Assembly (NCBI GenBank): GCA_964458835.1
Contig: CAYWKV010000001.1
Coordinates: 19,130 to 83,129, forward strand
DNA from: an uncultured Gammaproteobacteria bacterium
Lineage (GTDB): Bacteria; Pseudomonadota; Gammaproteobacteria; Thiohalobacterales; Thiohalobacteraceae
Direction: 5' to 3'
DNA: 64,000 bases
The notes under the pieces are model-generated. The model was not told the DNA's origin. It saw nothing but the letters and a program-made list of their open reading frames with translations, and did not search any database. The number at the start of each line of letters is the position of its first letter. Position 1 is the first letter of the stretch. This document shows, piece by piece, positions 1-63,594 of this stretch. The translations under genes were made by a program, and so were the position numbers.

Positions 1-95
1 TTGCAGTCTCCACTACCAAGCCGTGGAGCGGGCATCGCAACCTGTGAACCTCGATCGACGGCATATTGCGGCGATCAGTCTCCAAACCCGTGGGC

Positions 96-1184
96 TTACA
101 GAAAATAGTGACAACTATCCTGCCGCGCGGGGTGATTGATGGCCTTCAAGTTCTTCGCCGCCTCGCGTACCGCCAATAACAGCGTCTTCAACGCCACGTC
201 GTCGTTTGGAAAATCGTGCCAGGTGCTGGCGTATTTGCGCATCACCATATTCAAAGACTTGATCGCGTTGGTGGTGTAGATCACCTCGCGGATTTCTGGA
301 AGGAACTGGAAGAACGGAATGATATTGACCCAGTGACCGCGCCACAGCCGCGCCACCGCGTTGTATTGCGCCCCCCAGGCCGACTCGAACGCCTCCAACT
401 CCCGCGCCGCGTCCTCGGCCGTGGCCGACTGGTAGATGCACTTCAAGGCCGCCACCACCGCCTTGCTGTCATTCGACGTCACATTACGCAGGCTGGCACG
501 CACCAGGTGTACCATGCAGAGCTGCGTCAGCGTCTTGGGGTACACGGCATTAACCGCCTCCACCGCCCCCTTCAAGCCGTCCATGCAGGCCACGTAGATA
601 TCCTGCACGCCGCGTTGGCACAGTTCGGTCAGCACCGCCAACCAGGGTTTGACGTCATCGTGCTCAGCCAACCACAGCCCCAGCACCTCCTTCTCGCCGC
701 GCAGGTTCACCCCCAACACCACATGCGCCGACTGATTCACCACCTGTTTGTCGTGGCGCACCTTGATGACAATCCCGCCCAACCACACAATCGGGTAGAC
801 TGCGGCCAGCGGCCGCGTCTTCCACGCCAGCGCCTCGTCCAGACCCGCGTCGGTGATATCGCAGATCAACGCCTGCGAGATCGTCACCCCGTACAGATCC
901 TGCAACGCCGACTCGATATCACGTGTGTACAGCCCCTTGGCATGCAGCATCAGGATCTTCTCCTCCATCTCCGCCAGGCGGACGTGCCGCTTATTTACAA
1001 GATGTGGATCACTCCCTTCGCAGTCGCGTGGTGTCTTAACCGAATGTTGTCCTACCACTCTCTGCACGGTCTTGCAGCCTTTGCCATTGCGCTGGGCACG
1101 GTTCTCCTTGCCGTATCGCTCACTCATACCTCTGCTCCCGTGGCAACAGCCACAACGTCCACCGATGTCAGTGATCGTGCCCAT
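96..1184 (-). pseudogene. IS256-family (Mutator-type) transposase remnant, 5'-truncated, with DDE residues substituted
   Basis: The 362-aa ORF carries family motifs (TPRDxEGxxxPxLVxK, ACMDGLKG, LCMVHLVRAS, YTTNAIKSLN). Only 48 nt lie between its 5' end and the next gene, so the usual N-terminal ~50 aa are missing. The first catalytic Asp position reads WLGGI (normally LDA/LDG). The TTNxIES glutamate reads Lys. Confidence 0.8.
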
Positions 1185-1232
1185 GATTTTGTGAACGATG
1201 CCTAGCGGAGGTAGCCCGAGTCTTCACTGACA

Positions 1233-1703
1233 TCATCCGTTGCCTGAAAACCTGGGGCGTTCTACCCGGCCTGACAAAGCAGACAGCGCCTGCTTCACCC
1301 GATCGATATACCGGGCGCGATTCGCTTGTGCCGCCGCAGTATCCTTCTGGCCGGCGTTATAGGCCCCAACTGCTTCCCAGCTCGGTCCGTAATGCGCGAC
1401 ATTCTGGACCAATACCCAAGCCCCTACGAACGTGCTCACACAGGCATCCCAAAGGTCGGTCTCGCTGATACCCATTCGGGATAATTTTGGCAGCCACAGC
1501 TCATTGATCTGCATCAGCCCAATATCGCGACTCCCATCACGGTTGACGTTCACCGCGCCTGGATCCAGATTGCTTTCCACCGTGGCGATCGCGCGCAAGA
1601 GGTCCGGTGAGACACCGTAGTAGTCGCCCGCTTGCTCAAAGCACATCGCTGAGACGACACCGGTCATTGCCAGATAAACCGTCACTAACCATACCAAGCG
1701 CAT
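1233..1703 (-). CDS. SLT-domain lytic transglycosylase (T4SS-associated)
   Basis: N-terminal signal peptide. Catalytic motif TVESNLDP...DIGLMQINELW is typical of family-1 lytic transglycosylases. Confidence 0.9.
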   Translation of the reverse strand: MRLVWLVTVYLAMTGVVSAMCFEQAGDYYGVSPDLLRAIATVESNLDPGAVNVNRDGSRDIGLMQINELWLPKLSRMGISETDLWDACVSTFVGAWVLVQNVAHYGPSWEAVGAYNAGQKDTAAAQANRARYIDRVKQALSALSGRVERPRFSGNG

Positions 1704-1708
1704 TGTCG

Positions 1709-1972
1709 CTATTTCCGAATGACGATGGTGACGCGTGTATCACCGCCGGTGACTTCGTCGACGTCGACCGTGTCGATGGCCCACCCCTGTGATTGGAGCT
1801 GATTCAGCTTTTCGTTGATGTTGGCAGCCAACGTCGGCGGGTGCCTCAGGGAATAAAACACCACAACCTGGACCTCGCCGCTCTGGCTTACTGGCGCCTC
1901 CAGCGCAAATCCTTGGCTTGCGAGCAATAGAATCGCTGCACCGATAAACCCCTTACACCAGCGATTCTGCAT
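1709..1972 (-). CDS. small exported hypothetical protein
   Basis: Signal-peptide-like FIGAAILLLASQGFA-LEAP. Start moved to the internal Met to reduce overlap with the upstream gene. No recognisable domain. Confidence 0.35.
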   Translation of the reverse strand: MQNRWCKGFIGAAILLLASQGFALEAPVSQSGEVQVVVFYSLRHPPTLAANINEKLNQLQSQGWAIDTVDVDEVTGGDTRVTIVIRK

Positions 1973-2744
1973 CGCCTGTCTCCTCCTCAGCAGTGTCGTC
2001 ATCGCCCTGGGCGTCCGTCGTGGCGCCCTCGTTCATCAGGTTCACCAGGGCACGCTGCTTGTGACTCTTACGCTTGAGCGCGCTGCGCACGCGGTTGGCT
2101 TCCCCGTCCACACGGTTGGCCAATCGCGTCATGATGGACTTCCATTCCTTGCGCTGCTTCTTCAGCTCATCCCGCTTGATACTGCCGGTCAGATGGAGGA
2201 GTTCGACCTTGATGAGCAAATTGTCGGCTTTCCGAAGAAGTGAAATGTATTCACCCACGCGAGGGGTCGTCTGACGCATCGTGAAAGCACGGGGTCGCGT
2301 GTATTTCGGCCACGCATCGATCCCAAGGCGCTCGATGAGCAGGTCCGCTGAGCGTTGCTCCTCGATCACGCGCTTCTCGACCGCCGAGAACATCGCGTCC
2401 AACTTGATTTGCATGATGTCCACCACGTCGTCCCAATCACGGGCGAGCGGCAACCCTTCCACCAGATAGGCATTCTGTGGCAGCCGACCAATGTTCCGGT
2501 TCAGTGCCTCCATGAGCACATCGTTGTAAAGTTCGAAACCAACCTCGAGGTAGGGGACGTTATCCCAGAACTCGAGTTCATCGGAACGGTTGCGCTTTAC
2601 CGGCTTGGTTGGAGACGGGCTGGGTTGCGACTCGGTGGCCGCCTGTCCGCGATCTACAGGAACCTCAATCGTCTGCTTCTGTGGCCCAATCCCCGGCGCG
2701 ATTTCAGTATGAGTCGCCGGCGCTGCCGCTTCTCTCTTAGCCAT
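1953..2744 (-). CDS. hypothetical conjugative-element protein with basic helical C-terminus
   Basis: 263-aa ORF in an operon with the SLT and S49 peptidase genes. Coding-like composition. I cannot assign a family from sequence alone. Confidence 0.5.
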   Translation of the reverse strand: MAKREAAAPATHTEIAPGIGPQKQTIEVPVDRGQAATESQPSPSPTKPVKRNRSDELEFWDNVPYLEVGFELYNDVLMEALNRNIGRLPQNAYLVEGLPLARDWDDVVDIMQIKLDAMFSAVEKRVIEEQRSADLLIERLGIDAWPKYTRPRAFTMRQTTPRVGEYISLLRKADNLLIKVELLHLTGSIKRDELKKQRKEWKSIMTRLANRVDGEANRVRSALKRKSHKQRALVNLMNEGATTDAQGDDDTAEEETGDAESLV

Positions 2745-2809
2745 GAACTTCCCTCACGTTCAACTGCCGGACACGGTCGCCCGTCCGGCCCGGGCGGCGC
2801 TGCCTGTAC

Positions 2810-3874
2810 TTAAAACCCAAGCATGAATACCGGGCCCTGATGCGCTGAAACGCCAATATCCATGGCAATCTGCGATACCGCAGTCTGTAGGCGTGCGAAG
2901 AGAGGTGTCACTGGCGTGTAGTCACGCACGACTTTGGCCTTGAAGTACTTCTCGACCACTTCCGTCGGTGCCGCGATACCGTCCGCGAGACCTAACGCCA
3001 CGGCTTCGTTACCGGTCCAGAAGTCGCCCGAGAACAGGGCCTTCTCATCGCCCTTAAGACGATCGCCGCGACCTGCCTTCACAGCGGAAATGAAGTTGCT
3101 GTGGAGTCCCGACAGGACCGTGGTGATCTTGTTGCGGTCTTCATCGGTCACCGGCATGAAATCGTCGATCCGCACTTTATGCTCGCCGGCGGTAAAGATG
3201 CGACGCTCGACACCCAGCTTGCGAGCGACGTCCACAAGGCCATAGCTCTCCATCTTGACGCCGATGGAACCCACGATGCTGTTCTCATTGACGTAGAACT
3301 CCTTGGCCGCGGCAGCAATGTAGTACGCACCCGATGCGGCTAGATCCTCAGCCACGGCAATGACCCGTTTCTTGGGGTACTGCTCTTGCAGAGAACGGAG
3401 CTCCTTGTAGATCAGGTCCGCCTGAGTCGGTGTGCCACCCGGTGAATTGATCAGTACCATCACGCCCTTGGCCTTCTCATCGGCGAAGGCATCATCCAGC
3501 GCCTCACTGATGGCGATTGCATTGGCCGGTTTCTCGGGTGCAATCATTCCTGAAATCTTGACCATGGCCACGTATTCTTCTGTCGGCACAGCCAGGGATC
3601 CGAATCCACTCAGCTTGGCAAATCCCAGCAGATTGACGATGGCCAACAGGGTGAAGCTGATCGCCACGGCGCCCCAGCGCACGTTCTTCCAGAACGTCTC
3701 GCTGCGCTGCTGCTTGAGCATGGAGTCCTGATGCCGAAGCATCAGATTGACCATCTTTCTCAGGACGGTGGTTTCGTTCTCTTTGCGACGCTCGACCGGC
3801 AGGCCATGGTGGTCCGCGGGCCGCGCATCCTGCGTCATTCGTTGCGTCCGTCCGTTATCGTCGTTTTGATGCAT
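2810..3874 (-). CDS. S49-family signal peptide peptidase (SppA-like)
   Basis: One TM segment, then VLINSPGGTP and AEDLAASGAYYIAAAA...SIVGSIGV, matching S49 peptidase signatures. The start codon is uncertain because several in-frame Met exist. Confidence 0.8.
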   Translation of the reverse strand: MHQNDDNGRTQRMTQDARPADHHGLPVERRKENETTVLRKMVNLMLRHQDSMLKQQRSETFWKNVRWGAVAISFTLLAIVNLLGFAKLSGFGSLAVPTEEYVAMVKISGMIAPEKPANAIAISEALDDAFADEKAKGVMVLINSPGGTPTQADLIYKELRSLQEQYPKKRVIAVAEDLAASGAYYIAAAAKEFYVNENSIVGSIGVKMESYGLVDVARKLGVERRIFTAGEHKVRIDDFMPVTDEDRNKITTVLSGLHSNFISAVKAGRGDRLKGDEKALFSGDFWTGNEAVALGLADGIAAPTEVVEKYFKAKVVRDYTPVTPLFARLQTAVSQIAMDIGVSAHQGPVFMLGF

Positions 3875-6728: not shown

Positions 6729-7538
6729 GTGGAGGGGCGCACAGTGATACCCCGAATCAGGCTCCCAGCGACGGCACGCGCGATGGTGCGAGTTATCACG
6801 TTATGTGAAATGACGGACATTTCGCCATCACAGCTTGCTATGGCGGTTCAGGGAGACCCTGGCTGTGTGGTTTCGCTGCTCGCCGCGTCTGGTTATCCAC
6901 GCCGATATGATCGTACGGATTACTCCGTACGATCATCCATAGAACGTCTAGGCGTCGGACGTGCGCTCCACACCTGCTTGACCAGTGACATCCTGCAAAG
7001 AGACATGGTCGGCAATGGCGACTGTATACGCCACTGGCGTTGCGCCTTACTCACGGCAGCCTACGCTCGCGCCGTGGCGACACGATTGCGCCGTACGGAT
7101 GTTGAAATCATCCAGACAGCAGCCGTACTCCGGAACGTACGTGAGTTGCTCACAGCGTGCCGATGTGTCCCGTATAACGACACAGGGGCTCATGGCATCG
7201 ATTGGCTACATACACTGGGTATTTCAAGTGCCATTTGTGACCTGATACACCGGAGCCTGACGACAACCGGTGATGAGGCGGCTGATTGCCTGACCCTAGG
7301 TTCGCGGATGGCGGAGGTCTGGCTATCTCGAGATTGGGAACGGTCGCTTACGGAAACCAGGGCCATAGCCCAGGATCTCTTCGGTGCCATCCCCGATTTA
7401 TGCGCATGGGTATTTGGTATTTCCGGACCACAGGCTCGTGATCTGGAGGATTTATTGAAATTGCGGTTCCCCTCCAGAAAACAGGCCGACGCATTACGTC
7501 TGAAGGCCCAGTTCATCGTTGCACGCTTAACCTTGTGA
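6729..7538 (+). CDS. HDOD-like domain protein (divergent)
   Basis: DISPSQLAMAVQGDPGCVVSLLAAS...VRSSIERLGVGRAL...WRCALLTAAYARAVA parallels the clear HDOD protein at 62650-63594 segment by segment. Confidence 0.45.
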   Translation: MEGRTVIPRIRLPATARAMVRVITLCEMTDISPSQLAMAVQGDPGCVVSLLAASGYPRRYDRTDYSVRSSIERLGVGRALHTCLTSDILQRDMVGNGDCIRHWRCALLTAAYARAVATRLRRTDVEIIQTAAVLRNVRELLTACRCVPYNDTGAHGIDWLHTLGISSAICDLIHRSLTTTGDEAADCLTLGSRMAEVWLSRDWERSLTETRAIAQDLFGAIPDLCAWVFGISGPQARDLEDLLKLRFPSRKQADALRLKAQFIVARLTL

Positions 7539-9368: not shown

Positions 9369-10420
9369 ACTTTCTCCTCAGGGTCGTTGAGTCGTCTGTT
9401 CCAGGTGCTCATGTTCTCTTCTTGTGGACGGGATCGTGGTTTCCCGGCACGTGACCGCCGACGGTCCATGTCGAAGCCGACGTAATACGACACGACACTC
9501 GCGCGGCTATGCCCGGCCTCCTCGGCCAGCTCCCGACGCGCCGGCGCGATGTCGTCACACGCGTACCGATCCCGTAGACCATCCGCCTTCACCGGCGGCT
9601 CCATGCCGGTCAGCTCGACGTAGCGCCGCTGCAGGTGGCCATGACGCAGACCATGGGAGGTAATCCCGCGGCCCTTCCGGGTCACGCCGAACATCGCCAT
9701 GACGTGGTAGTAGTAGGACCGCCAGCGCTTCAACGGGTAGCTGCTGGGGACCATCGAGCCGCCGTTCTCCGTTGCGACCTTCACGGCCGCCTCGAGCACA
9801 CGGCGCTGGTGCTCGTTGACTACGGGCACCACGCGTGGCCGTCCACCCTTTGTGCCGCGCTCGACGTGCAGGGTGTCACCCTTCCAATCCCGCTTGGGCC
9901 GCAGCAACCAGGCTTCCTGCACGCGCAGCCCGAAGGCATCCATCAGCACCATCTGCAGGCCGACCAGGCTGTCGCGCTGACCGATCTCCGCAACGACCTC
10001 GACGGCATCCTGCCCCAGGTCCGACCACTCCTTGGACTCATTGCACTTCAGCGCCCGGTGATAGCGCGAGGCGTCGTTGAAGTACGTCTCCGGGCGATCC
10101 AGCATGCCCGCCTTGCCGATCGCGGTGCACAACGTCCGTAGCATCGAGACGTAGGTCTGCATCGTGCCTGCCGCCCTCCCCAGCCCCTCCCAGTATTGCA
10201 GCAGGGCCGCGATGTGGCGGCGATCCAGGTTCCGAATGTCCCGGAGCCCGAAGTTGAGTGAATCCAGGATATCGGGGAGCCGGAAATAGAAGCCCCAGCG
10301 GTCGGCGACCGTCTTGGAACTCAGTTTCTTACCGGACTGGCGCGTTTTCGAACTGCTCTTGTGTATGACCGGCCGCATCACCTGCTCAATGCTGTGCCGT
10401 AGTTGTCGCATTCTGGACAT
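9365..10420 (-). CDS. tyrosine recombinase / integrase-family protein
   Basis: C-terminal catalytic signatures: GTKGGRPRVVPV (Arg I), HGLRHGHLQRRY (H-x-x-R), GHSRASVVSYYV (His and Tyr). Confidence 0.8.
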   Translation of the reverse strand: MSRMRQLRHSIEQVMRPVIHKSSSKTRQSGKKLSSKTVADRWGFYFRLPDILDSLNFGLRDIRNLDRRHIAALLQYWEGLGRAAGTMQTYVSMLRTLCTAIGKAGMLDRPETYFNDASRYHRALKCNESKEWSDLGQDAVEVVAEIGQRDSLVGLQMVLMDAFGLRVQEAWLLRPKRDWKGDTLHVERGTKGGRPRVVPVVNEHQRRVLEAAVKVATENGGSMVPSSYPLKRWRSYYYHVMAMFGVTRKGRGITSHGLRHGHLQRRYVELTGMEPPVKADGLRDRYACDDIAPARRELAEEAGHSRASVVSYYVGFDMDRRRSRAGKPRSRPQEENMSTWNRRLNDPEEKV

Positions 10421-11445
10421 GACGCTGTTTCCTTCTGTTCGGTTGTCTCAAGAGGACCGTCCCTCGGCACGGGTCGCACCCTCGGACGCCTTCCTATCTG
10501 CGCCCCGTGCGGTCACGGACGATCCTGACGATGTTCGTTGCTGTGGTTCCTTTCGCGCCTGCGCGCGTGGCTTGCACTTTAGGGGTCTCACCGTGACATG
10601 GCGGCCCGATTAGGGCGCCCACGCCAGGCCATCTCCGTTCCTGTCCCACGGCTGAAACCGCGTCGAAACGGCGCTGGGCCTTGTCGTATTGCTTCGCAGG
10701 CCGGTGCCACCTGCTTTTCCGCGCTATTCGCAGTACCAAATCTTTCCCGCAAAGGAACCCCCACCTGCCACCGGTGGGCATTGCGTCCCATCCCCTCGCC
10801 GCCACCTGGACCACCCCCGGGTGTGAATAGGGTGTTAAAGGCGACCGCGACCGGCGTTGAGCCAGTCACGCAGAGCGTTCTCGGGATGGATAGACGGCGC
10901 ACACGGCGCCACGACGCGTACCCGGACTGGGTAGGCGACTCAGCGGTATATCCGCTGCAACGTTTTTGAGATCCGACCGCTGATTGCGGTCATCTGGCAC
11001 CTGAGTGCCCGGGGGAGTGAAAACCCGGTCCTGATAGGCCCCGGTAGTCCTCGATTCCGGTCCGTTCAATACGGGGGAATCTACCTGCTGCTCGTTTAGC
11101 GACCTCAGCTGGGTCGGCTTGGGCGTGCGCCCGAGGTGGCCACATACTGGCGCGACGACAACGCCTTGTCAACAACCCGGGTACCACACAGACATGGCTT
11201 AATCGACCGCTTAATTTCTGGGATCGCGCTAAGACTGTGTTTATGCGTTTTGTTGATTTTGCGTTCTCACACTCAATGTTTGGGCAAGGGGTGGGCGAAC
11301 GCAATGACAGCTACTTCCGCCGTGCACGCCGGCGTCGACAGCTCCATATTCAGGAAGGCCGCGGCATGTTTCGGCCGCTACCACCAGGCCTGACCTCGTT
11401 AATGAGTTGGCATGCGTTGTTCGCCAATCACCATCGAACAGCTCT

Positions 11446-13928: not shown

Positions 13929-13954
13929 ATCCTGCTGCTCAACGGCCAGCTACC
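13929..13954 (-). promoter_or_regulatory. box A copy D (diverged)
   Basis: The minus strand reads GGTAGCTGGCCGTTGAGCAGCAGGAT. It is followed by hairpin CAGGCTTCAGCCTG and a second GC hairpin, then the SD. Confidence 0.5.
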
Positions 13955-14006
13955 GATCGTTGCGTCCGAGGGCGCATGGATACCATATATATATCCTGAA
14001 CAGAGT

Positions 14007-35036: not shown

Positions 35037-35155
35037 GGGAACGAAGCGTACTGGCCGTGTGGTGGCTTAAAAAAGGTGCCGAACAGCCTGATTGTGGTTC
35101 TTTGCGGGATATTTTCGCGGTATCGGGTGGGACGCTACGACATCGTATCGACGAC

Positions 35156-39920: not shown

Positions 39921-40532
39921 CTAGAACAGTGAACCGCTTTGTGTTCGCTTCCGCTGGGCCTTTCTTATCCTTTTTGCTCTACGGCTGGCCTGTTCTCGGC
40001 AGGTATCTGAGCAGTAAGCGCGTGGTCGGCCCCGACCCTCCTGTGGTGGCAACGGCCCGCCACACTCAGCACAGCGACATATAGTTGCCTGACGGCATAA
40101 TGGGCAAAGCCGTTCACGATTCAGTGCGCGGAATAATGTGGTGCATTCTGTACAACGTTCGAGATGTGTCGATCCCAACCGGTAGAGTTTGATGGCCGCA
40201 TAACAGGCATCCCAACTTAAGACGGGAGTCTCTGACTGCCGTTGATAGACGGAGATCGCCCTGACAACCCGCTCGATTCCGCGATAATCAACGAGGCGAT
40301 TGTATATCTCGATTACTGCTGCAACGGCAGCGATGTTCTCCCGCTGCTCAAGGCGTTCAGCCCAGTTTTCGTCATTCCAGCGTTGAAGTGTGGACGGGAT
40401 TGTAATGTGGAGCTTGGTGCACCAGACCTGCAGTGTTTTCCTGTATGGGAGCCCGAAAAGGTCCTGAACCGCGATGCTGGTCCCGCCCCAGAGTGCGATT
40501 TCGCGTAGTAGGTCTGCATGCCGTGGATCCAT
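39921..40532 (-). CDS. zinc-ribbon protein, possibly an FlhC/SetC/AcaC-like transcriptional activator
   Basis: Helical N-domain, then CTEC-12 aa-CPLC (FlhC has CxxC-16 aa-CxxC), extra CRCAEC and a basic tail. Located directly upstream of traI. Confidence 0.35.
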   Translation of the reverse strand: MDPRHADLLREIALWGGTSIAVQDLFGLPYRKTLQVWCTKLHITIPSTLQRWNDENWAERLEQRENIAAVAAVIEIYNRLVDYRGIERVVRAISVYQRQSETPVLSWDACYAAIKLYRLGSTHLERCTECTTLFRALNRERLCPLCRQATICRCAECGGPLPPQEGRGRPRAYCSDTCREQASRRAKRIRKAQRKRTQSGSLF

Positions 40533-40541
40533 AGTCCATAC

Positions 40542-41129
40542 CTACCCTTCGAGTGTGCTCAGCCACAGCGAAGGTCCAAGACGGGTCTCTACATTGGGCA
40601 CCACGGATTCGATGCGGCTGCGCCACCATTCAACCTGGTTTGCTCGCTGGAAGACGACCGGCACTCGGCTGGCCCACGCCTCAACCACGTCACGAGTCAC
40701 CAACTGAAGTGAATTCATGCGAACGTACGAAAGCCCTGTAATCAGGGTCGCGATATCCGCGTCCAGTGCGTGCACATAGAGAATCGTCTGCGCAAGATGT
40801 TCGACGTGACTGCACAACCGCCGTGCTCTGGTAGCGTCCTGCTTTGGCAGCTTATCGGGACTGTCCAGACAGTCCCAATGTTCTGGCAGAATTTTCAGTA
40901 TCGGCTGGAGCGACGATGCCAAGGCGTCGTTGAAGTCCTGGGAACTGTGTGCGATGAGCTGGCTGAGAACGGTTGACCCACTGACATCGCCGGCGACGAT
41001 GGCCCCCTCTCGCAGGTCATCCAATACCGCGTGGTTCCACTCAGCTAACCGGAGACGGCAGGTCGCCGCCCGATTACGGGCTTCCTCCTTCCACCGGACG
41101 AGATCGAGATTTGGTCTCATTGTTATCAC
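40542..41129 (-). CDS. hypothetical protein, first gene of the activator-traI transcription unit
   Basis: 195-aa helical protein. It occupies the partner (FlhD-like) position, but sequence similarity is not evident. Confidence 0.45.
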   Translation of the reverse strand: MITMRPNLDLVRWKEEARNRAATCRLRLAEWNHAVLDDLREGAIVAGDVSGSTVLSQLIAHSSQDFNDALASSLQPILKILPEHWDCLDSPDKLPKQDATRARRLCSHVEHLAQTILYVHALDADIATLITGLSYVRMNSLQLVTRDVVEAWASRVPVVFQRANQVEWWRSRIESVVPNVETRLGPSLWLSTLEG

Positions 41130-41387: not shown

Positions 41388-42086
41388 ATGCCGAATACAC
41401 GTCGTCCAATTGACTTTCTGAGCCCTATGACCGACCCATCGACATCCCGGCCAAGAGTCTTCCTCTGCGATGACCATGTCATCATCCGCAAGGGTCTACG
41501 GGATCTTCTGGCACAACAGGATATCCAGGTTGTCGGCGAGGCGGACTCACTGGCAATGGCCTTTGAGCAATGCGAGGACGCAGCCCCAGATGTCGTAATT
41601 CTTGACCTCAACATGGACGAAGATTATGGCATTCACACGTTAGATCGATTCATTGAACGCTTCCCTCGGCTGAGCGTGGTGGTTTTCAGCATGCGCGAGT
41701 CGATCTACACCATCGCCGCGGCATATGATGCCGGCGCGAAGGGGTATGTGACCAAGGCTGCGAGTCCACACGTCCTGCTAACAGCAATACGGGAAGTCGC
41801 TGCAGGCAACACCTTCTTCATGCCTGGGATGGCGGAAAAGATCCTTGTCTACAAGGCCAATGAGCAGAAAGACGTCGACCCGACCAAGGCACTGACCAAA
41901 TCGCAACTCAACGTATTCCGTATGATGGCGGAAGGCAAGTCCTATGATGAAATCGGCGCTATCTTGGGGCAATCAGGCAAGGCGATCGAGAACCGAGCCG
42001 TGCGGATCCGCAAGCGGCTCAATATCGGGCAAGGCGACCTCAAGCTGCTTGCGGTCAAATTCGGCATAATTCGACTCGATTTGTAA
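41388..42086 (+). CDS. NarL/FixJ-type response regulator (REC + LuxR HTH)
   Basis: DD...ILDLNM (Asp)...VFSM...YVTKA receiver residues. C-terminal LTKSQLNVFRMMAEGKSYDEIGAILGQSGKAIENRAVRIRKRL. Confidence 0.85.
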   Translation: MPNTRRPIDFLSPMTDPSTSRPRVFLCDDHVIIRKGLRDLLAQQDIQVVGEADSLAMAFEQCEDAAPDVVILDLNMDEDYGIHTLDRFIERFPRLSVVVFSMRESIYTIAAAYDAGAKGYVTKAASPHVLLTAIREVAAGNTFFMPGMAEKILVYKANEQKDVDPTKALTKSQLNVFRMMAEGKSYDEIGAILGQSGKAIENRAVRIRKRLNIGQGDLKLLAVKFGIIRLDL

Positions 42087-42087
42087 C

Positions 42088-43167
42088 GTGCAACTCACTC
42101 TCCCTAATGTCCCTCATACCAACGCGCACCTCCTTGTCATCGACGACGACATCGGGTTCCGAAGCGTACTGAGTGAGATACTAAAGAATCAGGGATATCA
42201 TGTTGTCACCGCCAAGGACTGTAGTGAGGCCAAGTCGCTTGCGCGCACCCAGCGCTTTGATCTTGCGCTGATGGATATCAACCTGCCTGATGGCTCGGGG
42301 CTCGATCTCTCAAGAGAGCTCTCTACGCTACCAGTGCTTTTCATAACCCAACACGATGAACAGGCTGCCATCGACAAAGCGATCGCTACAGGTAATGCCC
42401 GGCACAACATCATTGCGTATTTAACTAAGCCGCTGGATTTTGCCACTATCGAACCTACGATCCGTGTGAGTGTCGCGCTCGGTCGTGCACTGACGGAGCG
42501 CCTCAATCTGCATAAGACCGCTGCGCATGTCGTAGAACAACAAAAGCGACGCCTTGCCCGAGAAATCCATGACGAGCTTGGCCAGACGCTGGTCGGCGTA
42601 CGCTGGGAGGCAGCGGCCATACAACAGGCATTATCAGGCGATAACGCCCACGCCGATCTGGCCCGTCGTGCCGCCAGTATCCTTGAGTTTGTCAGCGCGT
42701 TGCAGTTAGGTGTCCAGCGCATCATTGAGGATCTGCACCCAGAAGTACTGGAAACACGCGGCTTGGTGGAGGCGCTCACAGCCCTGGTTGACGGTTGGAA
42801 CCAACGGATCCCCGATTGCCAGTTCATGTTCCAGTATGCTGACAAAGCGGCGCTGAACCAATTCGATATCGATTATGCCAGTATCGTTTACCGCATCATT
42901 CAAGAAGGCCTGACGAATATCGTCAAGCATGCGAATGCAAACACCGTAGAGGTCGTTCTTGATGTTATCCCGGGGCACATAACGTCAGTCAGAGGATCCA
43001 TCGTGGATAATGGTGTTGGCTTTGATACGGATGCGGTAAGCCCGCAACGGCATGGTCTGATCGGAATGCGTGAGCGTGTCGCTGCTCTAGCTGGCACGCT
43101 GCACGTCGAGAGTCACCCAGGTCACGGTACCCGGATTGTTTTCACGATACCGGTGCAACCGCAGTGA
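42088..43167 (+). CDS. soluble REC-HisKA_3-HATPase hybrid histidine kinase
   Basis: N-terminal receiver (LALMDINLPDG, YLTKPLD). H-box REIHDELGQ. N-box EGLTNIVKHANA. DNGVGF and GLIGMRERV. No TM or sensor domain. Confidence 0.85.
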   Translation: MQLTLPNVPHTNAHLLVIDDDIGFRSVLSEILKNQGYHVVTAKDCSEAKSLARTQRFDLALMDINLPDGSGLDLSRELSTLPVLFITQHDEQAAIDKAIATGNARHNIIAYLTKPLDFATIEPTIRVSVALGRALTERLNLHKTAAHVVEQQKRRLAREIHDELGQTLVGVRWEAAAIQQALSGDNAHADLARRAASILEFVSALQLGVQRIIEDLHPEVLETRGLVEALTALVDGWNQRIPDCQFMFQYADKAALNQFDIDYASIVYRIIQEGLTNIVKHANANTVEVVLDVIPGHITSVRGSIVDNGVGFDTDAVSPQRHGLIGMRERVAALAGTLHVESHPGHGTRIVFTIPVQPQ

Positions 43168-43180
43168 TTTGCGCGAGTAA

Positions 43181-43558
43181 TCAGCGCTGACTATCTGTGC
43201 CGCTCTCCCCGAGCTCGACCAGTATCCCCCGGATTTCTGTGTCAGTGCGCCTAAAGTTCTCCTGAAGACGCTTACACTGGTCTTCCGCATCCTCGGCAAC
43301 AATCCAACCCGATTCCTTGCAAGCATCGGCAACAATGATCGCACCGTAGGTGTCCATGGAGCCCTTGATCCGGTGAAGGATGTCCCGCCCACTGGCCTGA
43401 TCCCTGTCTGAGACGGACTGTGAAAGAGCCCGTAACAGGTCCTCGACCTGTGCGACCACCTCATCCCATGTAGTGAGTAACATGGCTGGGCTGCACCCCA
43501 TCGAGACCAATGCCTGTAGCTGCGCGCGATTGATCAGAGAGCCATTATGCTCGCCCAT
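43181..43558 (-). CDS. Hpt (histidine phosphotransfer) domain protein
   Basis: ILHRIKGSMDTYGA matches HxxKGSxxxxGA. Confidence 0.75.
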   Translation of the reverse strand: MGEHNGSLINRAQLQALVSMGCSPAMLLTTWDEVVAQVEDLLRALSQSVSDRDQASGRDILHRIKGSMDTYGAIIVADACKESGWIVAEDAEDQCKRLQENFRRTDTEIRGILVELGESGTDSQR

Positions 43559-46152: not shown

Positions 46153-46209
46153 GTATACTCCCACGCACGCCCCCCGTTCGGAGGCGTGCTTGATTACAAG
46201 ACACCCTGA

Positions 46210-46245
46210 ACGGCGGGATTCCTGCTGCTTAAAGGCCAGCTACCT
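46210..46245 (-). promoter_or_regulatory. box A copy A
   Basis: The minus strand reads AGGTAGCTGGCCTTTAAGCAGCAGGAATCCCGCCGT, 58 nt upstream of the vWA start. Confidence 0.6.
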
Positions 46246-46341
46246 ATCTGCCCTATAAGGGCGTGAAGCCTTTTCGCACAACCCTATTGGATTGTCTGAA
46301 AAGGCGCCTCCCTGAGGAGGCGCAAAAATCAGCCAGTCACG

Positions 46342-49469: not shown

Positions 49470-49505
49470 ACGGCGGGAATCCTGCTGCTTAAAGGCCAGC
49501 TACCT
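49470..49505 (-). promoter_or_regulatory. box A copy B
   Basis: The minus strand reads AGGTAGCTGGCCTTTAAGCAGCAGGATTCCCGCCGT, 35/36 identical to copy A and 70 nt upstream of the AAA+ start. Confidence 0.6.
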
Positions 49506-49619
49506 GTCAGCCCGGTGGGGCAGGAATTGCGCTCTAGACCGTCTTGCGACGCGGTCCACCGCAGGGCACGGCATGCATACCCTGTGGTGGGCCGCCAACC
49601 GAAGTTGGGGCCCGGACGT

Positions 49620-50675
49620 CTACCAGTTGTAGACGCCTTCTTTGGGAAGCGGCTCTGCCTCCCGTGCAGTGGCTGCGAACAGGTCGTTACGCGCTTCCTG
49701 CTCACGCTCGGCCACACGTCCCGATGCGCTGGATTCATAGATACGAATCTGCTCGTCACCCGGTGGCCGCCTATACCGCTCAATGGTCTCCTGGTCCAGC
49801 GTAGGCAGTCGTTCGCCTACCAGCGCTTTCCAGTCAACACTGCCTTGCCGCGTGAATCGCACGACGCGCAGGTCGCAGGCCTCAGCGTGGAGAAAATCGC
49901 CCATCAGGGCAACCAACCCTTGGTCCTTCTCCTGCAGGCGCCGTTCGATGTTTGCCACTTGCGACTTCGCATTCTCGAGGAACACCGCAAGACGCTTGCG
50001 CTCATCCGCGACAGCTTGCCACTGCGCAAGGATGTCGCCCTCAGGGACGTAAATATCCCGTTCGGGATCCTTCTTGGGTTCCTTACCCGTTTGGATCGAC
50101 ACCCAAAAGGCTTCCGATTCGGGAATCAATTGCGAACGGATGAACTCCTCATCGCGTTCGATCTTGAACTCCACGTAGATCGGTTCGCCTTCATCCACAT
50201 CGAGGCATAGAAAGCAGAGGTACCCCTGCTCTGACCCCGTGACGTAGATTTGATGCTGCACCTGAGGCCAGTACAGCTGGTAGGCCTCAGAAGCACGCAG
50301 GTTCGCCAGCACATCACGGTACGTGTTGACATGTGGCGCCTTCATTTCGACGGGTTCTCCACCTGTCGTTATGCCGTCCAGCGAGGCCCGAAACAGCGGG
50401 TTCTCGCTCGATTCGCAACAGACCGGCAGAAGTATGTCGTTATGCCGTTGTTCGACTCGCTGCCGTACCCAGTCTTCGAGTCGCACGCCCCGCCTGACAT
50501 TGGGGTTGCGCGACAGGTCATCCGGTACGGCCTTGCCCATCTTCTCCGCCCATAACCGCCAACGCGTCTTGTGCGGGCACCGTCCCAGGATCGTTGCGAC
50601 TTCGCTCGCCGAGATCCCATTACGGCGCCACGCATACCACGCCGCCGATCGCTGAGAAAGATCAACGATGCGCAT
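49620..50675 (-). CDS. YqaJ-type (lambda Exo-like) recombination exonuclease with C-terminal extension ending ...VYNW
   Basis: MRIVDLSQRSAAWYAWRRNGISASEVATILG is the YqaJ N-terminus. Start after AAAGGAGAGG. Confidence 0.8.
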   Translation of the reverse strand: MRIVDLSQRSAAWYAWRRNGISASEVATILGRCPHKTRWRLWAEKMGKAVPDDLSRNPNVRRGVRLEDWVRQRVEQRHNDILLPVCCESSENPLFRASLDGITTGGEPVEMKAPHVNTYRDVLANLRASEAYQLYWPQVQHQIYVTGSEQGYLCFLCLDVDEGEPIYVEFKIERDEEFIRSQLIPESEAFWVSIQTGKEPKKDPERDIYVPEGDILAQWQAVADERKRLAVFLENAKSQVANIERRLQEKDQGLVALMGDFLHAEACDLRVVRFTRQGSVDWKALVGERLPTLDQETIERYRRPPGDEQIRIYESSASGRVAEREQEARNDLFAATAREAEPLPKEGVYNW

Positions 50676-52658: not shown

Positions 52659-52713
52659 GCGATGCTCCACACACGCCCCTCCGACACGGGGCGTTATGAG
52701 TAAACGCCCGTGT

Positions 52714-52747
52714 ACGGCGGGTCCTGCTGCTTGAAGGCCAGCTACCT
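52714..52747 (-). promoter_or_regulatory. box A copy C
   Basis: The minus strand reads AGGTAGCTGGCCTTCAAGCAGCAGGACCCGCCGT, 56 nt upstream of the 52658 start. Confidence 0.55.
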
Positions 52748-53030
52748 CTCGGACACACGATGATCGCGTGCCAATGAAAAGCGAAGATCCGGGAATTGTG
52801 CGTGATGACGCACGTGGCAATGAGCGATGACGCTCCGAGGAGTCCGGGTCGGGCTCCTGACCTGAGTAGGCCCCAGGCAATCGACGGTGGCCGTCGAACA
52901 GCAGATCACAGATAGACCTGCTCTTACCAGCCATTGCTGGTTTGGGGCAGAATAGTCCTTTCAGTCTGGCAGTTCAAGCCGCCGGCGCCACCAGTCACCA
53001 CCGCTGTCCGCCTAAGCGGATGAGTCAGTG

Positions 53031-58668: not shown

Positions 58669-58692
58669 TTGAAATTTATAGGAGGGTGGACG

Positions 58693-59067
58693 ATGGCGCA
58701 GCAATCCCTGAACAAGGCTAAGTCCGAGGCGGTGCTGTCCAAGGCAGTCCTGAGGGCCGGCGACATGCTGGGCCTCAATGGTAAACAGTTGGCTGAGGTG
58801 CTCGGCGTGAGCACATCGTCGATTACAAGGATGTCCAGTGGCGACTATGTCCTGGCTGAAAAAAGCAAAGAGTGGGAGTTAGGGTTGCTGTTTGTTCGCC
58901 TGTATCGGAGCATCGATGCCATGGTCGCCGGCGATGAACACTCACGCCTGGCTTGGATGAGCAATCCGAATACGGATTTGCACGGTGTACCCAGTACATT
59001 GATCAACACGGTACAAGGGCTGGTACAGACGGTTGAGTATGTGGACGCCTACCGCGCTCGCGTCTGA
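58693..59067 (+). CDS. Xre/MbcA/ParS-type antitoxin (HTH + DUF2384-like C-domain)
   Basis: ATG after GGAGGG. LNGKQLAEVLGVSTSSITRM HTH. C-terminal ...WMSNPNTDLHGVPSTLINTVQGLVQTVEYVDA. Confidence 0.8.
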   Translation: MAQQSLNKAKSEAVLSKAVLRAGDMLGLNGKQLAEVLGVSTSSITRMSSGDYVLAEKSKEWELGLLFVRLYRSIDAMVAGDEHSRLAWMSNPNTDLHGVPSTLINTVQGLVQTVEYVDAYRARV

Positions 59068-59773
59068 AGCCCGGCGCCTTGGCGGCATCGTTTGGCGGGT
59101 CGTGGAATATCAGTACACGGCATCCACGCGTAAGCTCGTGGATACCGCCGACGAACAAGCGGTATTAGAAGAGCTGCTGGAAGTAGCCAAACCCCCATAC
59201 CCGGCTGGCACGGAACACCTGCATTACCTACTCAAGACGCCGTTCCGCTATTACCCGCCACGTACGCACGGGTCGCGTTTTCGTAGGCCGATGGCAGGGG
59301 AGGGCGTGTATTACGCGTCTGAGCATGTTCGAACCGCACTCGCCGAAATTGCGTACTACAGGATCCGGTTCTTCCAGGCATCGCCCGGTACGCCTTTACC
59401 AAAGAATGAAGAACGGCTGAGTGTGTTCAGCGTCGAGTACGGTACAGAGCGTGGACTGGATCTCACCGAGCCTCTGCTCAATCGAGACCGCGCTTCGTGG
59501 ACACATCCCATCGACTACACGGCAACCCAGCAACTGGCCGACGCGGCACGCGCGGCCGGCGTTGACGCGCTGCGGTATGAATCAGTCCGCGACGTGGAGC
59601 AGGGCGCTAACGTGGCCTTACTCGAACCACGAGGCTTTACGCTTCCGCAGCCAGTATCTATGCAGACCTGGTACCTCTATCTGGGTGAGGCCGAAATAAA
59701 CTGCACGCGATCACACGCGACCGCAGCAGAAGATCGCTGGACATTTCCGCGGGAGCATTTCATAACACCCTAA
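59039..59773 (+). CDS. RES-domain toxin
   Basis: GSRFRRP (R), VYYASEHVRTALAE (E), ALRYESVRD (S). Overlaps the antitoxin gene. Confidence 0.85.
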   Translation: MWTPTALASEARRLGGIVWRVVEYQYTASTRKLVDTADEQAVLEELLEVAKPPYPAGTEHLHYLLKTPFRYYPPRTHGSRFRRPMAGEGVYYASEHVRTALAEIAYYRIRFFQASPGTPLPKNEERLSVFSVEYGTERGLDLTEPLLNRDRASWTHPIDYTATQQLADAARAAGVDALRYESVRDVEQGANVALLEPRGFTLPQPVSMQTWYLYLGEAEINCTRSHATAAEDRWTFPREHFITP

Positions 59774-61189: not shown

Positions 61190-61396
61190 GTGGAGGATCA
61201 TACCGTGGTCAAGAACGAAGATGAGACGAGGACGCCTGAGTCGGAAGAAGTCGGTGATAAGACGGTAACGCCCTGTGCGACTCGTATTGGTCTCGCGTAT
61301 ATCGTGTCGAACTCACAGGACGTCGATGCAGATGAGCTAGTAAATCGCCTATGCGGGTATCTCGAATTATGCGGCATCCCAGTGCTCTACGACTAA
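61190..61396 (+). CDS. small acidic ORF (doubtful)
   Basis: 68 aa with a GTG start. No motif. Confidence 0.2.
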   Translation: MEDHTVVKNEDETRTPESEEVGDKTVTPCATRIGLAYIVSNSQDVDADELVNRLCGYLELCGIPVLYD

Positions 61397-61437
61397 GTGC
61401 GGCGTCTAGACCATCCCGTACAGCGACGCGCGTGTCT

Positions 61438-62649
61438 ATGAGCACATCAGACGCCTACACGCTTTACATCAATCGTGTGAGCAGTTCACCGGCTCCTGAT
61501 CCTACAGAGCAGCTGCGTCATGCAAGGCGCATGGACAGACATCTGCTGCGTGTCAGCCGTAGCTTGACGCTATCGCCGTCGGTTTTATCAATTATTGCCC
61601 AGGATATCGAGTCCTGCACCACTGGCGGTCATGTCAAGCGCGTCATATCACGTGTGTGTGTCCCGGCCGATCTTGCGGGCAATGAGCGTGAGAGCGACGA
61701 GAAGCAGGTAATTGCGCAGTGTACGACGCGCTTATTGAGTCTAATTCGGGAAAATGGCAACCCATCGCCTAATGAGGTACGAGCCCACCTGTCATGGATA
61801 CGATTCAGTCGTGATTATCTTTACTCGTTGGTCGAGCGTCTATCGGTGGGAGCGACCGGCGATGCGGTGGTGACAGGCATGATGCGCAGAATTGGGTCAT
61901 TTATTCGGCATGCACTGAGCCGTATTGACGATGAGATCGACCATCTTGTGCAGGCCAACCAGCGTTTGGTTGTTACTACGGCGCGTCAATATCAGTACGG
62001 CCCCATCCCATTCATGGACTTGGTCCAGGAAGGTAATCTTGGCATTCTGCGGGCTGCAGAGCGCTTCGATCCTTACCGGGATACTCGCTTCTCCACGTAT
62101 GCCTCCTGGTGGATTAGACGCGCCATGGTCTATGCGATAGCACGCCAAGGGCATGTCGTACAACCGTCAGTGTCCAGATTTTGGGAGACAAAAAAGCTTG
62201 TCAGGGATCTTGATAAGCTGGAGATGGTGCTCGGCCGCAAACCCAGTCAGTCAGAGGCATCAGTGGAGCTCCAGCGGACTACCCTCGAGCTCGCAGGTGT
62301 ACGCGAGACGTTGGCGCAGGCCATATCACTTGATGGGCCGGTGTCAGCCGAATCAGACATACCCCTGATCGACAGAGTGCCAGCCGATGAAGGCGACATT
62401 CATGATGTGATGGCGCATGGTGATGCTGTGCGGATAGTTGCGAGCCTGCTCGATCAGCTTCCGAAACGCCATGCAGGGATTCTGAGAATGCGATTCGGAA
62501 TCGGTGTACATGAGTCATGCACACTGGAGCAAATAGCGCAGCAACAGGGCGTAACCCGTGAGCGCATTCGACAGCTGGAAGCCCAGGCGCTCGGTATGAT
62601 TCGAAATAATATCACGTTAGAAATGATCGCCGATTATTTGATGGACTGA
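61438..62649 (+). CDS. sigma-70 family sigma factor (RpoD/RpoS-like regions 1.2, 2, 3, 4) with a long insertion after region 1.2
   Basis: YINRVSS... (region 1.2), LVQANQRLVVTTARQY...DLVQEGNLGILRAAERFDP...FSTYASWWIRRAM (region 2), TLEQIAQQQGVTRERIRQLEAQAL (region 4.2). Confidence 0.85.
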   Translation: MSTSDAYTLYINRVSSSPAPDPTEQLRHARRMDRHLLRVSRSLTLSPSVLSIIAQDIESCTTGGHVKRVISRVCVPADLAGNERESDEKQVIAQCTTRLLSLIRENGNPSPNEVRAHLSWIRFSRDYLYSLVERLSVGATGDAVVTGMMRRIGSFIRHALSRIDDEIDHLVQANQRLVVTTARQYQYGPIPFMDLVQEGNLGILRAAERFDPYRDTRFSTYASWWIRRAMVYAIARQGHVVQPSVSRFWETKKLVRDLDKLEMVLGRKPSQSEASVELQRTTLELAGVRETLAQAISLDGPVSAESDIPLIDRVPADEGDIHDVMAHGDAVRIVASLLDQLPKRHAGILRMRFGIGVHESCTLEQIAQQQGVTRERIRQLEAQALGMIRNNITLEMIADYLMD

Positions 62650-63594
62650 GTGCCAATTATGAACCAGGAACTGTTGCGTAGGTTGACCCAATGTACGGAC
62701 TTACCGAGCCCGCCACATATCGCGTTGCGCGTGCTGGATGCAACCCAGGACGCTAGCCTTTCGACCAAGGATGTTGTGGCGCTCATCGAGAAGGATCCGG
62801 CATTGGCGACGCGGCTTATTCGGATAGTGAACTCGCCATATTACGGCCAGACACGATTGCACAAATCTGTACAGGATGCCGTGATGATGCTCGGGGTACG
62901 AAAAACACTCAATGTCGCCCTGACGTTTTCACTGATGGCTTCTCTGACCACTCGACGCAGCGAGGGTCTGGATTATGGTGTGTTCTGGAAACGTGCATTA
63001 CTTTCTGCCAGCTATGCGCGCGCGATATGCGCTCACCTAGGGCACCCAGACGCGGAAGAGGCCTATCTGGCCGCTTTGCTACAAGACGTCGGAATGTTGG
63101 CACTAGACCAGGTTCAGCGTAATCTATACGTAAAAACAACACCCAAATCGGGCTTCCATCGGTTGGCACGCCAAAGAGAAGAAGCCCTCGCGGAAGCTGA
63201 CCATGCCACTGTCGGGTCATGGCTCCTGGCGAGGTGGGGTTTCCCACATCGAATAATCCAGGCTGTCGCCGACAGCCACCGTGGTATTGGCGACCCAAAT
63301 CCTGGTGTTGAACAGGATCCTTTTAACGCATGTGTTGGGCTGTCTGGCGTCTTCGCCGATGTATGGCTTGAGAGCCCCTGGGGCGAGCAATTGACACACG
63401 CGTTCGACGCCGCGTTTGAGCTTCTCCGGCTCACGGGGGATACGGTCGTGAAGCTCCTATCGCCCATGGGGAAGGACGTGGCGATGCTGGAGGAATTGTT
63501 TGGAAGTGCCGTGATTAAGGAATCAGACGCGGCAGAACTTGAAGCACTTGCGAGACGGGTTTTGCGCGAACGCGAGCCAGACCCAAAACCATAA
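62650..63594 (+). CDS. HDOD domain protein
   Basis: LPSPPHIALRVLDATQD...LIEKDPALATRLIRIVNSPYYG...AVMMLGVRKTLNVAL...AALLQDVGMLAL...HATVGSWLLARWGFP. Confidence 0.85.
   Translation: MPIMNQELLRRLTQCTDLPSPPHIALRVLDATQDASLSTKDVVALIEKDPALATRLIRIVNSPYYGQTRLHKSVQDAVMMLGVRKTLNVALTFSLMASLTTRRSEGLDYGVFWKRALLSASYARAICAHLGHPDAEEAYLAALLQDVGMLALDQVQRNLYVKTTPKSGFHRLARQREEALAEADHATVGSWLLARWGFPHRIIQAVADSHRGIGDPNPGVEQDPFNACVGLSGVFADVWLESPWGEQLTHAFDAAFELLRLTGDTVVKLLSPMGKDVAMLEELFGSAVIKESDAAELEALARRVLREREPDPKP

Follow-up and report, generated by a model that had tools for sequence, protein, structure and literature searches.

Among the principal carriers of multidrug resistance in Enterobacteria and Vibrio are the IncA/C (IncC) plasmids, and the regulation described for them so far consists of a master activator, AcaCD, acting on about 19 promoters. 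The boxes of AcaCD and of the SetCD activator are duplex operators placed just upstream of the -35 element (TGCCCAAAWAGGGCA for AcaCD; ...TTGTCACCTTTCTGCCC... for SetCD), with the transcription start site (TSS) 34-37 nt downstream. Put (HK022) and EAR (Bacillus) are cis-acting RNAs of processive antitermination, which makes RNA polymerase resistant to terminators downstream; they are structured, work in one orientation only, and are transcribed near the start of, or inside, long mobile or accessory operons, and EAR contains a pseudoknot. Here we describe a short repeated box in a stretch of 64,000 nucleotides from an uncultured Gammaproteobacteria bacterium of the Thiohalobacteraceae (contig CAYWKV010000001.1, positions 19,130 to 83,129 of the forward strand; hereafter the window), which is, judging by its sequence, part of a plasmid in the style of SXT/R391 and IncA/C. 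This plasmid belongs to the same element family as the carriers of AcaCD and SetCD boxes, with a MOBH relaxase, an F-type type IV secretion system (T4SS), and an FlhDC-like activator, and its box precedes the same gene sets. The box belongs to an apparently undescribed and widespread RNA motif found in MOBH conjugative plasmids, IncA/C included.

The 25-nt box GGTAGCTGGCCnTnnAGCAGCAGGA lies on the minus strand at 46244-46220 (copy A), 49504-49480 (copy B), 52746-52722 (copy C), and 13954-13930 (copy D). All four copies had been proposed from the letters alone in an earlier model-made note (the sequence-only reading) and were confirmed here, together with the proposed 35/36 identity of copies A and B across a 36-nt block. 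The window holds four matches to the box as against none in 100 dinucleotide-preserving shuffles, and a weight matrix scan of the window scored the four copies at 39-43 bits, with the next best site at 11.8. From the end of the box to the ATG there are 67, 79, 63, and 84 nt, within the claimed range of 55-90 nt. The operons headed by the box encode a CobT/vWA protein; a CobS-like ATPase and a DUF3150 protein; a 139-aa protein with ssb, recT, and exo; and a 248-aa membrane protein. The proposal that several operons share a cis module in their leaders, and so form a co-regulated set, is supported. Of two weaker look-alikes listed earlier, that at 11084-11113 is a genuine variant copy (copy E) with counterparts in relatives, whereas that at 35057-35080 (minus strand) falls outside the family, having neither the AGCUG core nor the stems described below; an OmpA-like gene lies 30 nt downstream of it. 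The replicon carries at least seven motif copies, seven of seven on the gene strand, with two extra copies on the same strand just past the window start (L046 13981 and 14913) in about 1.2 kb of sequence beyond the window, on one side only. A Mutator/IS256-family transposase gene (96-1184, minus strand) sits between the window copies and these two.

Rigid patterns and gapless matrices missed most relatives of the box because stem and linker lengths vary. An exact-pattern scan of genome contigs returned 19 matches, 18 of them chance occurrences in coding DNA and one a true relative; the same scan gave 10 matches in metagenome contigs, none convincing, and 0 in viral contigs. The true relative, a contig of an alphaproteobacterial metagenome-assembled genome (L004), has a box 24/25 identical to that of the window, within a 710-nt gap adjoining a relaxase gene, and the relaxase and TraD encoded there share only 25% and 32% identity with their window counterparts. 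The motif far outlasts the surrounding proteins (25-39% identity) across alpha- and gammaproteobacterial elements. In a close relative, L033, boxes A and B are unchanged. Graded relatives were collected via the box-adjacent CobS-like ATPase, at 72-52% identity; the gapless matrix found no match in them, and inspection of the equivalent intergenic regions found box-like sequences with insertions and deletions. In four related plasmids or contigs with the same genes (pTmrp1, L044, L045, and L050), the motif was not recognisable.

A short BLAST search traced the core to 27 plasmids of Vibrio and Photobacterium, pAQU1 among them, and a 42-nt query of the pAQU1 type matched 870 PLSDB plasmids at 4,902 places, typically 5-6 in each. 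The match to this query is 100% identical across Klebsiella, Escherichia, Salmonella, Citrobacter, Proteus, Vibrio, and Aeromonas. As an IncC example, L053 carries seven copies of a long-stem subtype in 25 kb, all seven on the gene strand and none on the opposite strand, 95-123 nt upstream of the next start codon, together with one copy of the short-stem subtype seen in the window, upstream of the yfbR block. At least 10 copies were found in pAQU1 (10/10 on the gene strand) and five in L052 (5/5). In most copies, the start codon is 86-125 nt downstream of the motif. The blocks so headed are ssb-recT-exo (ssb/bet/exo), CobS-like, CobT/vWA, integrase, methylase, nucleotidase, and primase blocks of MOBH/F-type conjugative plasmids.

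Comparison of these copies suggests, with more confidence than doubt, that the box is the conserved loop and the 3' half of a compact H-type pseudoknot forming in the transcript. YAGCUGR occupies a 7-nt hairpin loop, and the sequence of the enclosing stem (stem 1) varies freely yet stays paired, as in the five copies of L052 and in L041, L043, and L051. The stems seen are GGCGA/UCGCC, AGCGG/UCGCU, GGAGG/CCUCC, CCAGG/CCUGG, CGUGG/CCACG, CGCGC/GCGCG, CGACC/GGUCG, and CUUCG/CGAAG, and in window copies A-D stem 1 is only AGG/CCU, GAGG/CCUU, or CGG/CCG. After stem 1 comes an A-rich linker and then CAGC, which is complementary to GCUG of the loop; in a variant in L051, GCUC in the loop is matched by GAGC as the downstream tetramer. 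The family consensus is thus a stem 1 of 3-6 bp of free sequence, the loop Y-A-G-C-U-S-R, and an SAGC tetramer pairing with GCUS of the loop as stem 2. Linker length tracks stem 1, being 4-5 nt with stems of 3-4 bp (copies A-D) and 9-10 nt with stems of 4-5 bp, which is how the third loop in an H-type pseudoknot would be expected to behave.

To quantify covariation, pairs were counted over 23 distinct 30-mers, with 500 shuffles and a sliding of the pairing partners as controls. Standard pairs fill 94.7% of pair cells as compared to 75.9% in shuffles, and the covariation score is 0.459 as compared to 0.095; neither value was reached in any of the 500 shuffles, and sliding the partners lowers pairing to 18-49%. 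Compensatory changes on both sides occur at 5/5 pairs of stem 1. In stem 2, one of the four pairs is compensatory (G-C to C-G) and the others are invariant. The motif scan had itself required pairing, and an ascertainment control was therefore made on bare 7-mers: both stems are present at 33 of the 177 bare occurrences in the sequences examined, whereas chance would give about 0.4. The distribution of stem-1 length there has two modes, 0-2 and 3-6, and the structured motif occurs 41 times as against 2-9 times in shuffles. The segments follow the H-type order S1-L1-S2-L2-S1'-L3-S2', with covariation support. No covariance model of Rfam 15, those for preQ1, EAR, pistol, and twister among them, matched the motif, even at E <= 5, in any of the sequences compared (the window, L039, L043, L051, and L052), and the motif was not found in the searchable literature.

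IncC plasmids provide evidence that the motif is transcribed. In pVCR94 (IncC), with AcaCD motifs determined by ChIP-exo (chromatin immunoprecipitation with exonuclease digestion) and start sites by 5' rapid amplification of cDNA ends, the TSS lies 34-37 nt past the end of the AcaCD motif (PMC4207636, Table S3). For instance, the vcrx087 promoter, just after traN, has an AcaCD motif at 65019-65047 and a TSS at 65081-65083, and is induced from 5 to 3445 (PMC4207636). In L053, the corresponding AcaCD box at 10209 is followed by a TATATT hexamer and then by the first copy of our motif (10297), 71 nt after the palindrome; the correspondence of pVCR94 and L053 is by gene order and spacing, not by alignment. 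We infer that the IncC pseudoknot occupies about +25 to +55 of the AcaCD-dependent vcrx087 transcript. The AcaCD promoters of vcrx098 and vcrx114 likewise precede motif copies, and the other five IncC copies lie between co-oriented genes without an AcaCD box. In IncC, then, the motif lies downstream of a mapped AcaCD-dependent TSS and so is transcribed, and by homology it is presumably transcribed in the plasmid of the window as well. The IncC TSS, the co-oriented genes, and the gene-strand bias place the motif inside the transcript, in the sense orientation, upstream of coding regions, and copies alternate with terminator-like hairpins along the gene array.

The relation to AcaCD is thus one of membership, in that the IncC motif belongs to AcaCD-dependent transcription units, with clear differences from the AcaCD and SetCD boxes themselves: the motif is downstream of the TSS, has another sequence, has co-varying stems, and is also present where there is no activator box. 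The sequence-only reading had treated the box as part of a promoter and leader module, with a transcribed RNA element listed among its alternatives. The promoter part does not hold, as no sigma-70 promoter is detectable near the copies and the IncC motif follows a mapped TSS. The weak -10-like hexamers it proposed also fail: their distance from the box varies between 17 and 27 nt, TGTAAT becomes TGTAAA in L033, and they are located within a co-varying stem. The transcribed RNA element is the listed alternative that fits the evidence. We regard a transcribed structured RNA element as probable, and, from the sequence comparisons and with somewhat less assurance, favour a new cis-acting leader or intercistronic RNA element over a DNA promoter or operator.

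In the window, all predicted pseudoknots are on the minus strand. That of copy A spans 46224-46245, with stem 1 AGG (46245-46243), loop UAGCUGG (46242-46236), the returning strand CCU (46235-46233), linker UUAAG (46232-46228), and the second strand of stem 2, CAGC (46227-46224), in the leader of the CobT/vWA operon (ATG 46152). Copy B (49484-49505) has the same segments, AGG, UAGCUGG (49502-49496), CCU, UUAAG, and CAGC, and is intercistronic between exo and the CobS-like ATPase gene (ATG 49400). Copy C (52726-52748) reads GAGG, UAGCUGG (52744-52738), CCUU, CAAG, and CAGC in the leader of the operon for the 139-aa protein, ssb, recT, and exo (ATG 52658), and copy D (13934-13955) reads CGG, UAGCUGG (13952-13946), CCG, UUGAG, and CAGC in the leader of the gene for the 248-aa membrane protein (ATG 13845). 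The third pair of stem 1 is C-G in copy D and A-U in copies A-C. Copy E (11087-11116) is of the long-stem subtype, with CGACC, CAGCUGA, GGUCG, CUAAACGAG, and CAGC, upstream of an integrase-like gene block (10420-8118).

Every copy is flanked by hairpins of unrelated sequence (Stouffer z of -4.1 upstream and -3.4 downstream), and the flanking hairpins reach z of about -5 on both sides in AT-rich pAQU1. The order of the whole module is a terminator-like hairpin, a CUUUYC...GRAAAG stem, a short hairpin, the pseudoknot, a long GC-rich stem, a hairpin presenting the Shine-Dalgarno (SD) sequence, and the start codon, with UUCG or GNRA loops on several of the stems. GC-rich hairpins had been reported after each of the four window copies, and they are indeed there; the description as two hairpins stands only in part, in that for copies A-C one long, imperfect, co-varying stem is the better description. 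In copy A, this stem spans 46170-46217 (minus strand), with the 5' arm CCCGCCGUUC pairing with the 3' arm GAACGGGGGG, and competes with the previously proposed second hairpin (GCACGCCUCC/GGGGGGCGUGC). In copy B, a stem of about 27 bp (49480-49425, minus strand; z = -5.0) is followed by an SD-containing hairpin (49423-49403), and in copy C the stem (52677-52721, minus strand) is formed by CCC.GCC.GUACACGGGCGUU and AACG.CCCCGUGUC.GG.AGGG. Downstream of copy D are three hairpins (13930-13913, 13909-13874, and 13870-13843, minus strand) which show no sequence relationship to the hairpins of A-C. In the cobS, cobT, and ssb leaders, the long stem that follows copies A-C is the minimum free energy fold in 6/7 homologues, in which it beats the two-hairpin model by 1.4-13.7 kcal/mol, and it has compensatory changes at consecutive pairs (U-A/A-U/C-G, then U-A/C-G, etc.). 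A MAFFT alignment of the leaders was out of register for the long stem, and the pairs were counted by script instead.

The upstream part of module A (46250-46323, minus strand) begins with the terminator-like hairpin GCGCCUCC-UCAG-GGAGGCGC and CUUUUC (46323-46298), followed by the CUUUUC...GAAAAG stem around a variable hairpin and by the hairpin GCCC-UUAUA-GGGC (46262-46250). These upstream parts (terminator-like hairpin, CUUUYC...GRAAAG stem, and short hairpin) are kept in L043, L044, pAQU1, and IncC. Pairing of the U-tract CUUUUC with the downstream GAAAAG across a variable hairpin (46271-46323, minus strand) is also seen at 3153 and 6204 of L043 and at 16708 of L044. The terminator-like hairpin with CUUUUC...GAAAAG is thus conserved between the plasmid of the window and Acidihalobacter-type contigs, pAQU1, and IncC, sometimes with no pseudoknot after it (L044). 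In L033, the box and the 110-nt leader of copy B are invariant, while 7 of the roughly 38 nt just upstream differ; one tetraloop there changes from GCAA to GUAA, which retains the GNRA form. The gap between exo and cobS upstream of copy B (49510-49640, minus strand) holds one stable hairpin after another, capped by UUCG and GNRA tetraloops.

Among described RNAs, put and EAR offer the nearest likeness in context, being structured RNAs of long mobile or accessory operons that act in one orientation; each motif copy, for its part, stands between a terminator-like hairpin and the gene block that comes next. They differ in having no sequence or Rfam similarity to the motif, whose core is much smaller (about 30 nt), and in occurring once or twice per replicon, as compared to 5-10 times for the motif. 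In topology, the motif resembles the compact H-type pseudoknots of preQ1-I aptamers, the T4 gene 32 leader, and viral frameshift signals, with a 4-5 bp stem 1, a first loop of 2 nt, a short stem 2 made from the loop and the 3' tail, and an A-rich linker of 9-10 nt. The T4 gene 32 pseudoknot also shares the context of a single-stranded DNA (ssDNA)-binding protein. In contrast to preQ1 aptamers, the loop between stem 2 and the returning strand of stem 1 is 1 nt, leaving no preQ1-type pocket, and neither the preQ1 families nor any other in Rfam matched the motif; in contrast to frameshift pseudoknots, the motif does not lie in a coding region and so is no frameshift signal.

A cis-acting RNA of this kind would act after initiation, as a recognition or structural signal, and would couple the expression of each block to transcription arriving from the activator-dependent promoter. 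It might counter polarity, keeping RNA polymerase and ribosomes going through a terminator-punctuated array in the way of the put or EAR RNAs, or it might delimit processed, stabilised, and translatable mRNA segments, one per block. We put forward each of these specific roles only tentatively, as about equally likely. Bolder and more doubtful is the idea that the YAGCUGR pseudoknot is a new RNA class that governs, post-initiation, the array of establishment and DNA-processing genes in its entirety in IncA/C, pAQU1-type, and related MOBH plasmids, possibly through a terminator-resistant transcription complex or by responding to a factor or ligand indicative of transfer or of entry into a new host.

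Several observations weigh against a transcribed pseudoknot as the functional form. Stem 1 has just 3-4 bp in the window copies, which makes the pseudoknot thermodynamically marginal there, and stem 2 is near-invariant, its sole covariation coming from one element (L051). Sense and antisense folding are symmetric (6/12) and indicate no functional strand, and with such symmetry an ssDNA form is compatible with the sequence alone. In copies A and B, the motif directly adjoins a GCCC-N-GGGC palindrome, and were this an operator of the AcaCD type, transcription would start downstream of the motif. Across the window, GCCC-N-GGGC palindromes are too few to be judged as a second regulon motif. No trans factor was identified for the motif, and phmmer and Pfam searches found no NusG/RfaH-like open reading frame (ORF) in the box-bearing sequences, host factors and unsampled parts of the replicons being outside their scope.

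The alternative that survives best, though we consider it unlikely, is a signal in ssDNA: the hairpins and the pseudoknot would form in the incoming transferred strand and serve as an early-expression or priming signal for establishment genes, analogous to Frpo/ssi. The symmetric folding just described would suit such a signal, as would the location of every copy on one strand, the typical early or leading-region functions encoded downstream (ssb, recT/exo, an orphan methylase, a primase), and the motif in the 710-nt gap beside the relaxase gene of L004. The Frpo/ssi elements of F and IncI leading regions are likewise recurrent, strand-specific, and intergenic, upstream of ssb and establishment genes. 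However, known ssDNA promoters are large stem-loops that rebuild -35/-10 duplexes (PMC11541004, PMC12672017). Frpo takes the form of stem-loops of about 200-300 nt, whereas the module described here is a chain of short hairpins with a pseudoknot and no promoter hexamers. The box has no complementary partner, and stems of 3-27 bp without hexamers are too short for a promoter. In addition, the IncC motif lies within strongly AcaCD-induced transcripts measured in donor cells, and the fairly constant distance to the start codon and the SD-presenting hairpins indicate a function in mRNA.

The box could also be a duplex operator or core promoter for the FlhDC-like master activator encoded at 39921-41129, as in the SetCD and AcaCD regulons, an alternative that we find improbable. 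The same gene sets (ssb-bet-exo, cobS-type, int) are activated by SetCD in SXT and by AcaCD in IncC, no sigma-70 promoter is visible near the copies, and copy A (GCCCTTATAGGGCAGATAGGTAG) can be set beside the AcaCD box of SGI1 xis (GCCCTAAAAGGGCAGATCCAGAG). Against this, no copy was found at any tra gene or in any gap of the tra array of the window, although boxes of this class would be expected at transfer-gene promoters (traI, traL, traV, traN, traF), and the motif resembles neither the AcaCD palindrome nor the Ps003 SetCD box, the sequence of which was recovered from cloning primers. The motif is identical in plasmids whose activators have no detectable similarity to the window's protein, and it coexists with genuine AcaCD boxes in IncC and pAQU1, downstream of their TSSs in IncC. 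A spacing between the conserved halves that varies by 6 bp, and stems that co-vary, are not expected of a duplex-binding site. The earlier suggestion of an operator for the FlhC-like activator is therefore not upheld, given the empty tra array, the dissimilarity to AcaCD and SetCD boxes, and the retention of the motif alongside unrelated activators.

A poorer candidate is an element of the ops/JUMPStart kind, which would be read from the non-template strand while the elongation complex is paused and would recruit a NusG-family antiterminator. JUMPStart, the sequence of which was verified in all 5,426 E. coli genomes, contains the recruitment site for RfaH and is likewise a brief, conserved stretch in the leaders of long operons, those for plasmid transfer among them, and the window subtype has GGTAGCTG..TTAAG..CAG in common with its 5' half. 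Control of the ops type is found in the transfer operons of F and IncX, and the motif stands at the head of long, terminator-punctuated arrays. The defining features of ops are the core GGCGGTAGnnTG, a G4-G8 loop, a C3:G8 pair, and a TG pause at positions 11-12 (PMC5995543). The motif lacks the ops core, and the shared GGTAGC is limited to one subtype. C3, which in ops pairs with G8, is missing; the TG pause dinucleotide is shifted out of register by one position; variants within the family carry C instead of the critical flipped T6; and the preceding GG is not conserved. This reading also leaves the stem covariation unexplained and calls for a NusG/RfaH-like factor, which the ORFs of the box-bearing sequences examined did not supply.

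Least credible is a promoter, whether for sigma-54 (-24/-12) or for the plasmid sigma factor (61351-62649): the window copies do fit TGGC-N9-GCA with correct GG/GC spacing, and a sigma-70-family gene is present on the plasmid, but the GG is gone from homologous copies (CUGAGC, CUGACC), in which the spacer is lengthened by 6 nt. All copies have CAGCA where a -12 element would read TTGCW, and the IncC motif is downstream of TSSs. The GG-N10-GC geometry noted earlier as typical of sigma-54 promoters is limited to the window subtype and lost in true homologues. That no enhancer-binding protein is visible was borne out, with no Sigma54_activat domain among about 70 ORFs scanned. The other earlier suggestion, a target of the plasmid sigma, is not supported either, the protein being RpoD/RpoS-like, with no homologue seen among the box-bearing Vibrionaceae plasmids. 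A resemblance to the lambda/rrn boxA (9/13) falls on the variable linker and was rejected by inspection. Consensus sites for CsrA (GGA), LexA (CTG-N10-CAG), sigma-32, and RNase E, as well as a Chi-like GCTGG, were compared by eye and showed wrong spacing or fell on non-conserved positions.

Other genes of the window include those for a Rep3 initiator, ParA, ParB, the F-type T4SS, a MOBH (TraI_2) relaxase, TraD, and a DUF4400 protein. The FlhC-like protein is cysteine-rich and 203 aa long (Pfam FlhC, E = 0.57) and, with a 195-aa partner ORF, is encoded at 39921-41129 (minus strand) directly upstream of traI. Divergent from these two genes, at 41388-43558, are genes for a response regulator of the NarL type, for a hybrid kinase, and for an Hpt protein. 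This arrangement is kept in all relatives found (L030, L033, L036, L043, and L051). A tblastn search of 72,556 plasmids gave no match to the FlhC-like protein, and a collection of 5.8 billion proteins held only two clusters of homologues, with identities of 96% and 75%, which were uninformative, being too close or too short. In L036, which has the FlhC-like locus with 75% identity, an AAA_21/AAA_15 ATPase and a UvrD-like helicase, a Gabija-like pair, replace the Hpt-cobT region of the window (446-3578).

The plasmid sigma factor (61351-62649, plus strand) is a 432-aa protein with a long N-terminal extension, and its best NCBIfam match is MzaA of the MZA anti-phage system, well under the cut-off. 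An HDOD protein gene follows it (61351-63594 region, plus strand), and a second HDOD gene lies at 6729-7538. An Xre-like antitoxin and a RES-domain toxin pair (58669-59773, plus strand) adjoins the Rep3 gene, and RES genes are also present in pPGC22 and pAQU1. Among the relatives, L044, an Acidihalobacter prosperus contig with a cobS/cobT block, has five 28-nt repeats with a period of about 60 nt beside a CRISPR_assoc gene (283-551), an arrangement resembling a small CRISPR array carried by a plasmid-like element. In L043, a RepA_C gene is adjoined by four direct repeats of 22 nt (GCGCGACCAAACCATCGTTGAA; 9954-10063), which are probably iterons.

For IncA/C regulation, these results add a covariation-supported RNA element present 5-10 times per plasmid. 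If the bolder idea of a new RNA class controlling the whole array is true, the motif would constitute a second regulatory layer below the AcaCD/SetCD master activators, one that has gone unnoticed in major antibiotic-resistance plasmids. Sites that would otherwise be annotated as promoters would be reinterpreted, and the combined signature of sequence and structure could be used to locate long, terminator-punctuated arrays of establishment genes, on the expression of which the motif would offer a testable handle.

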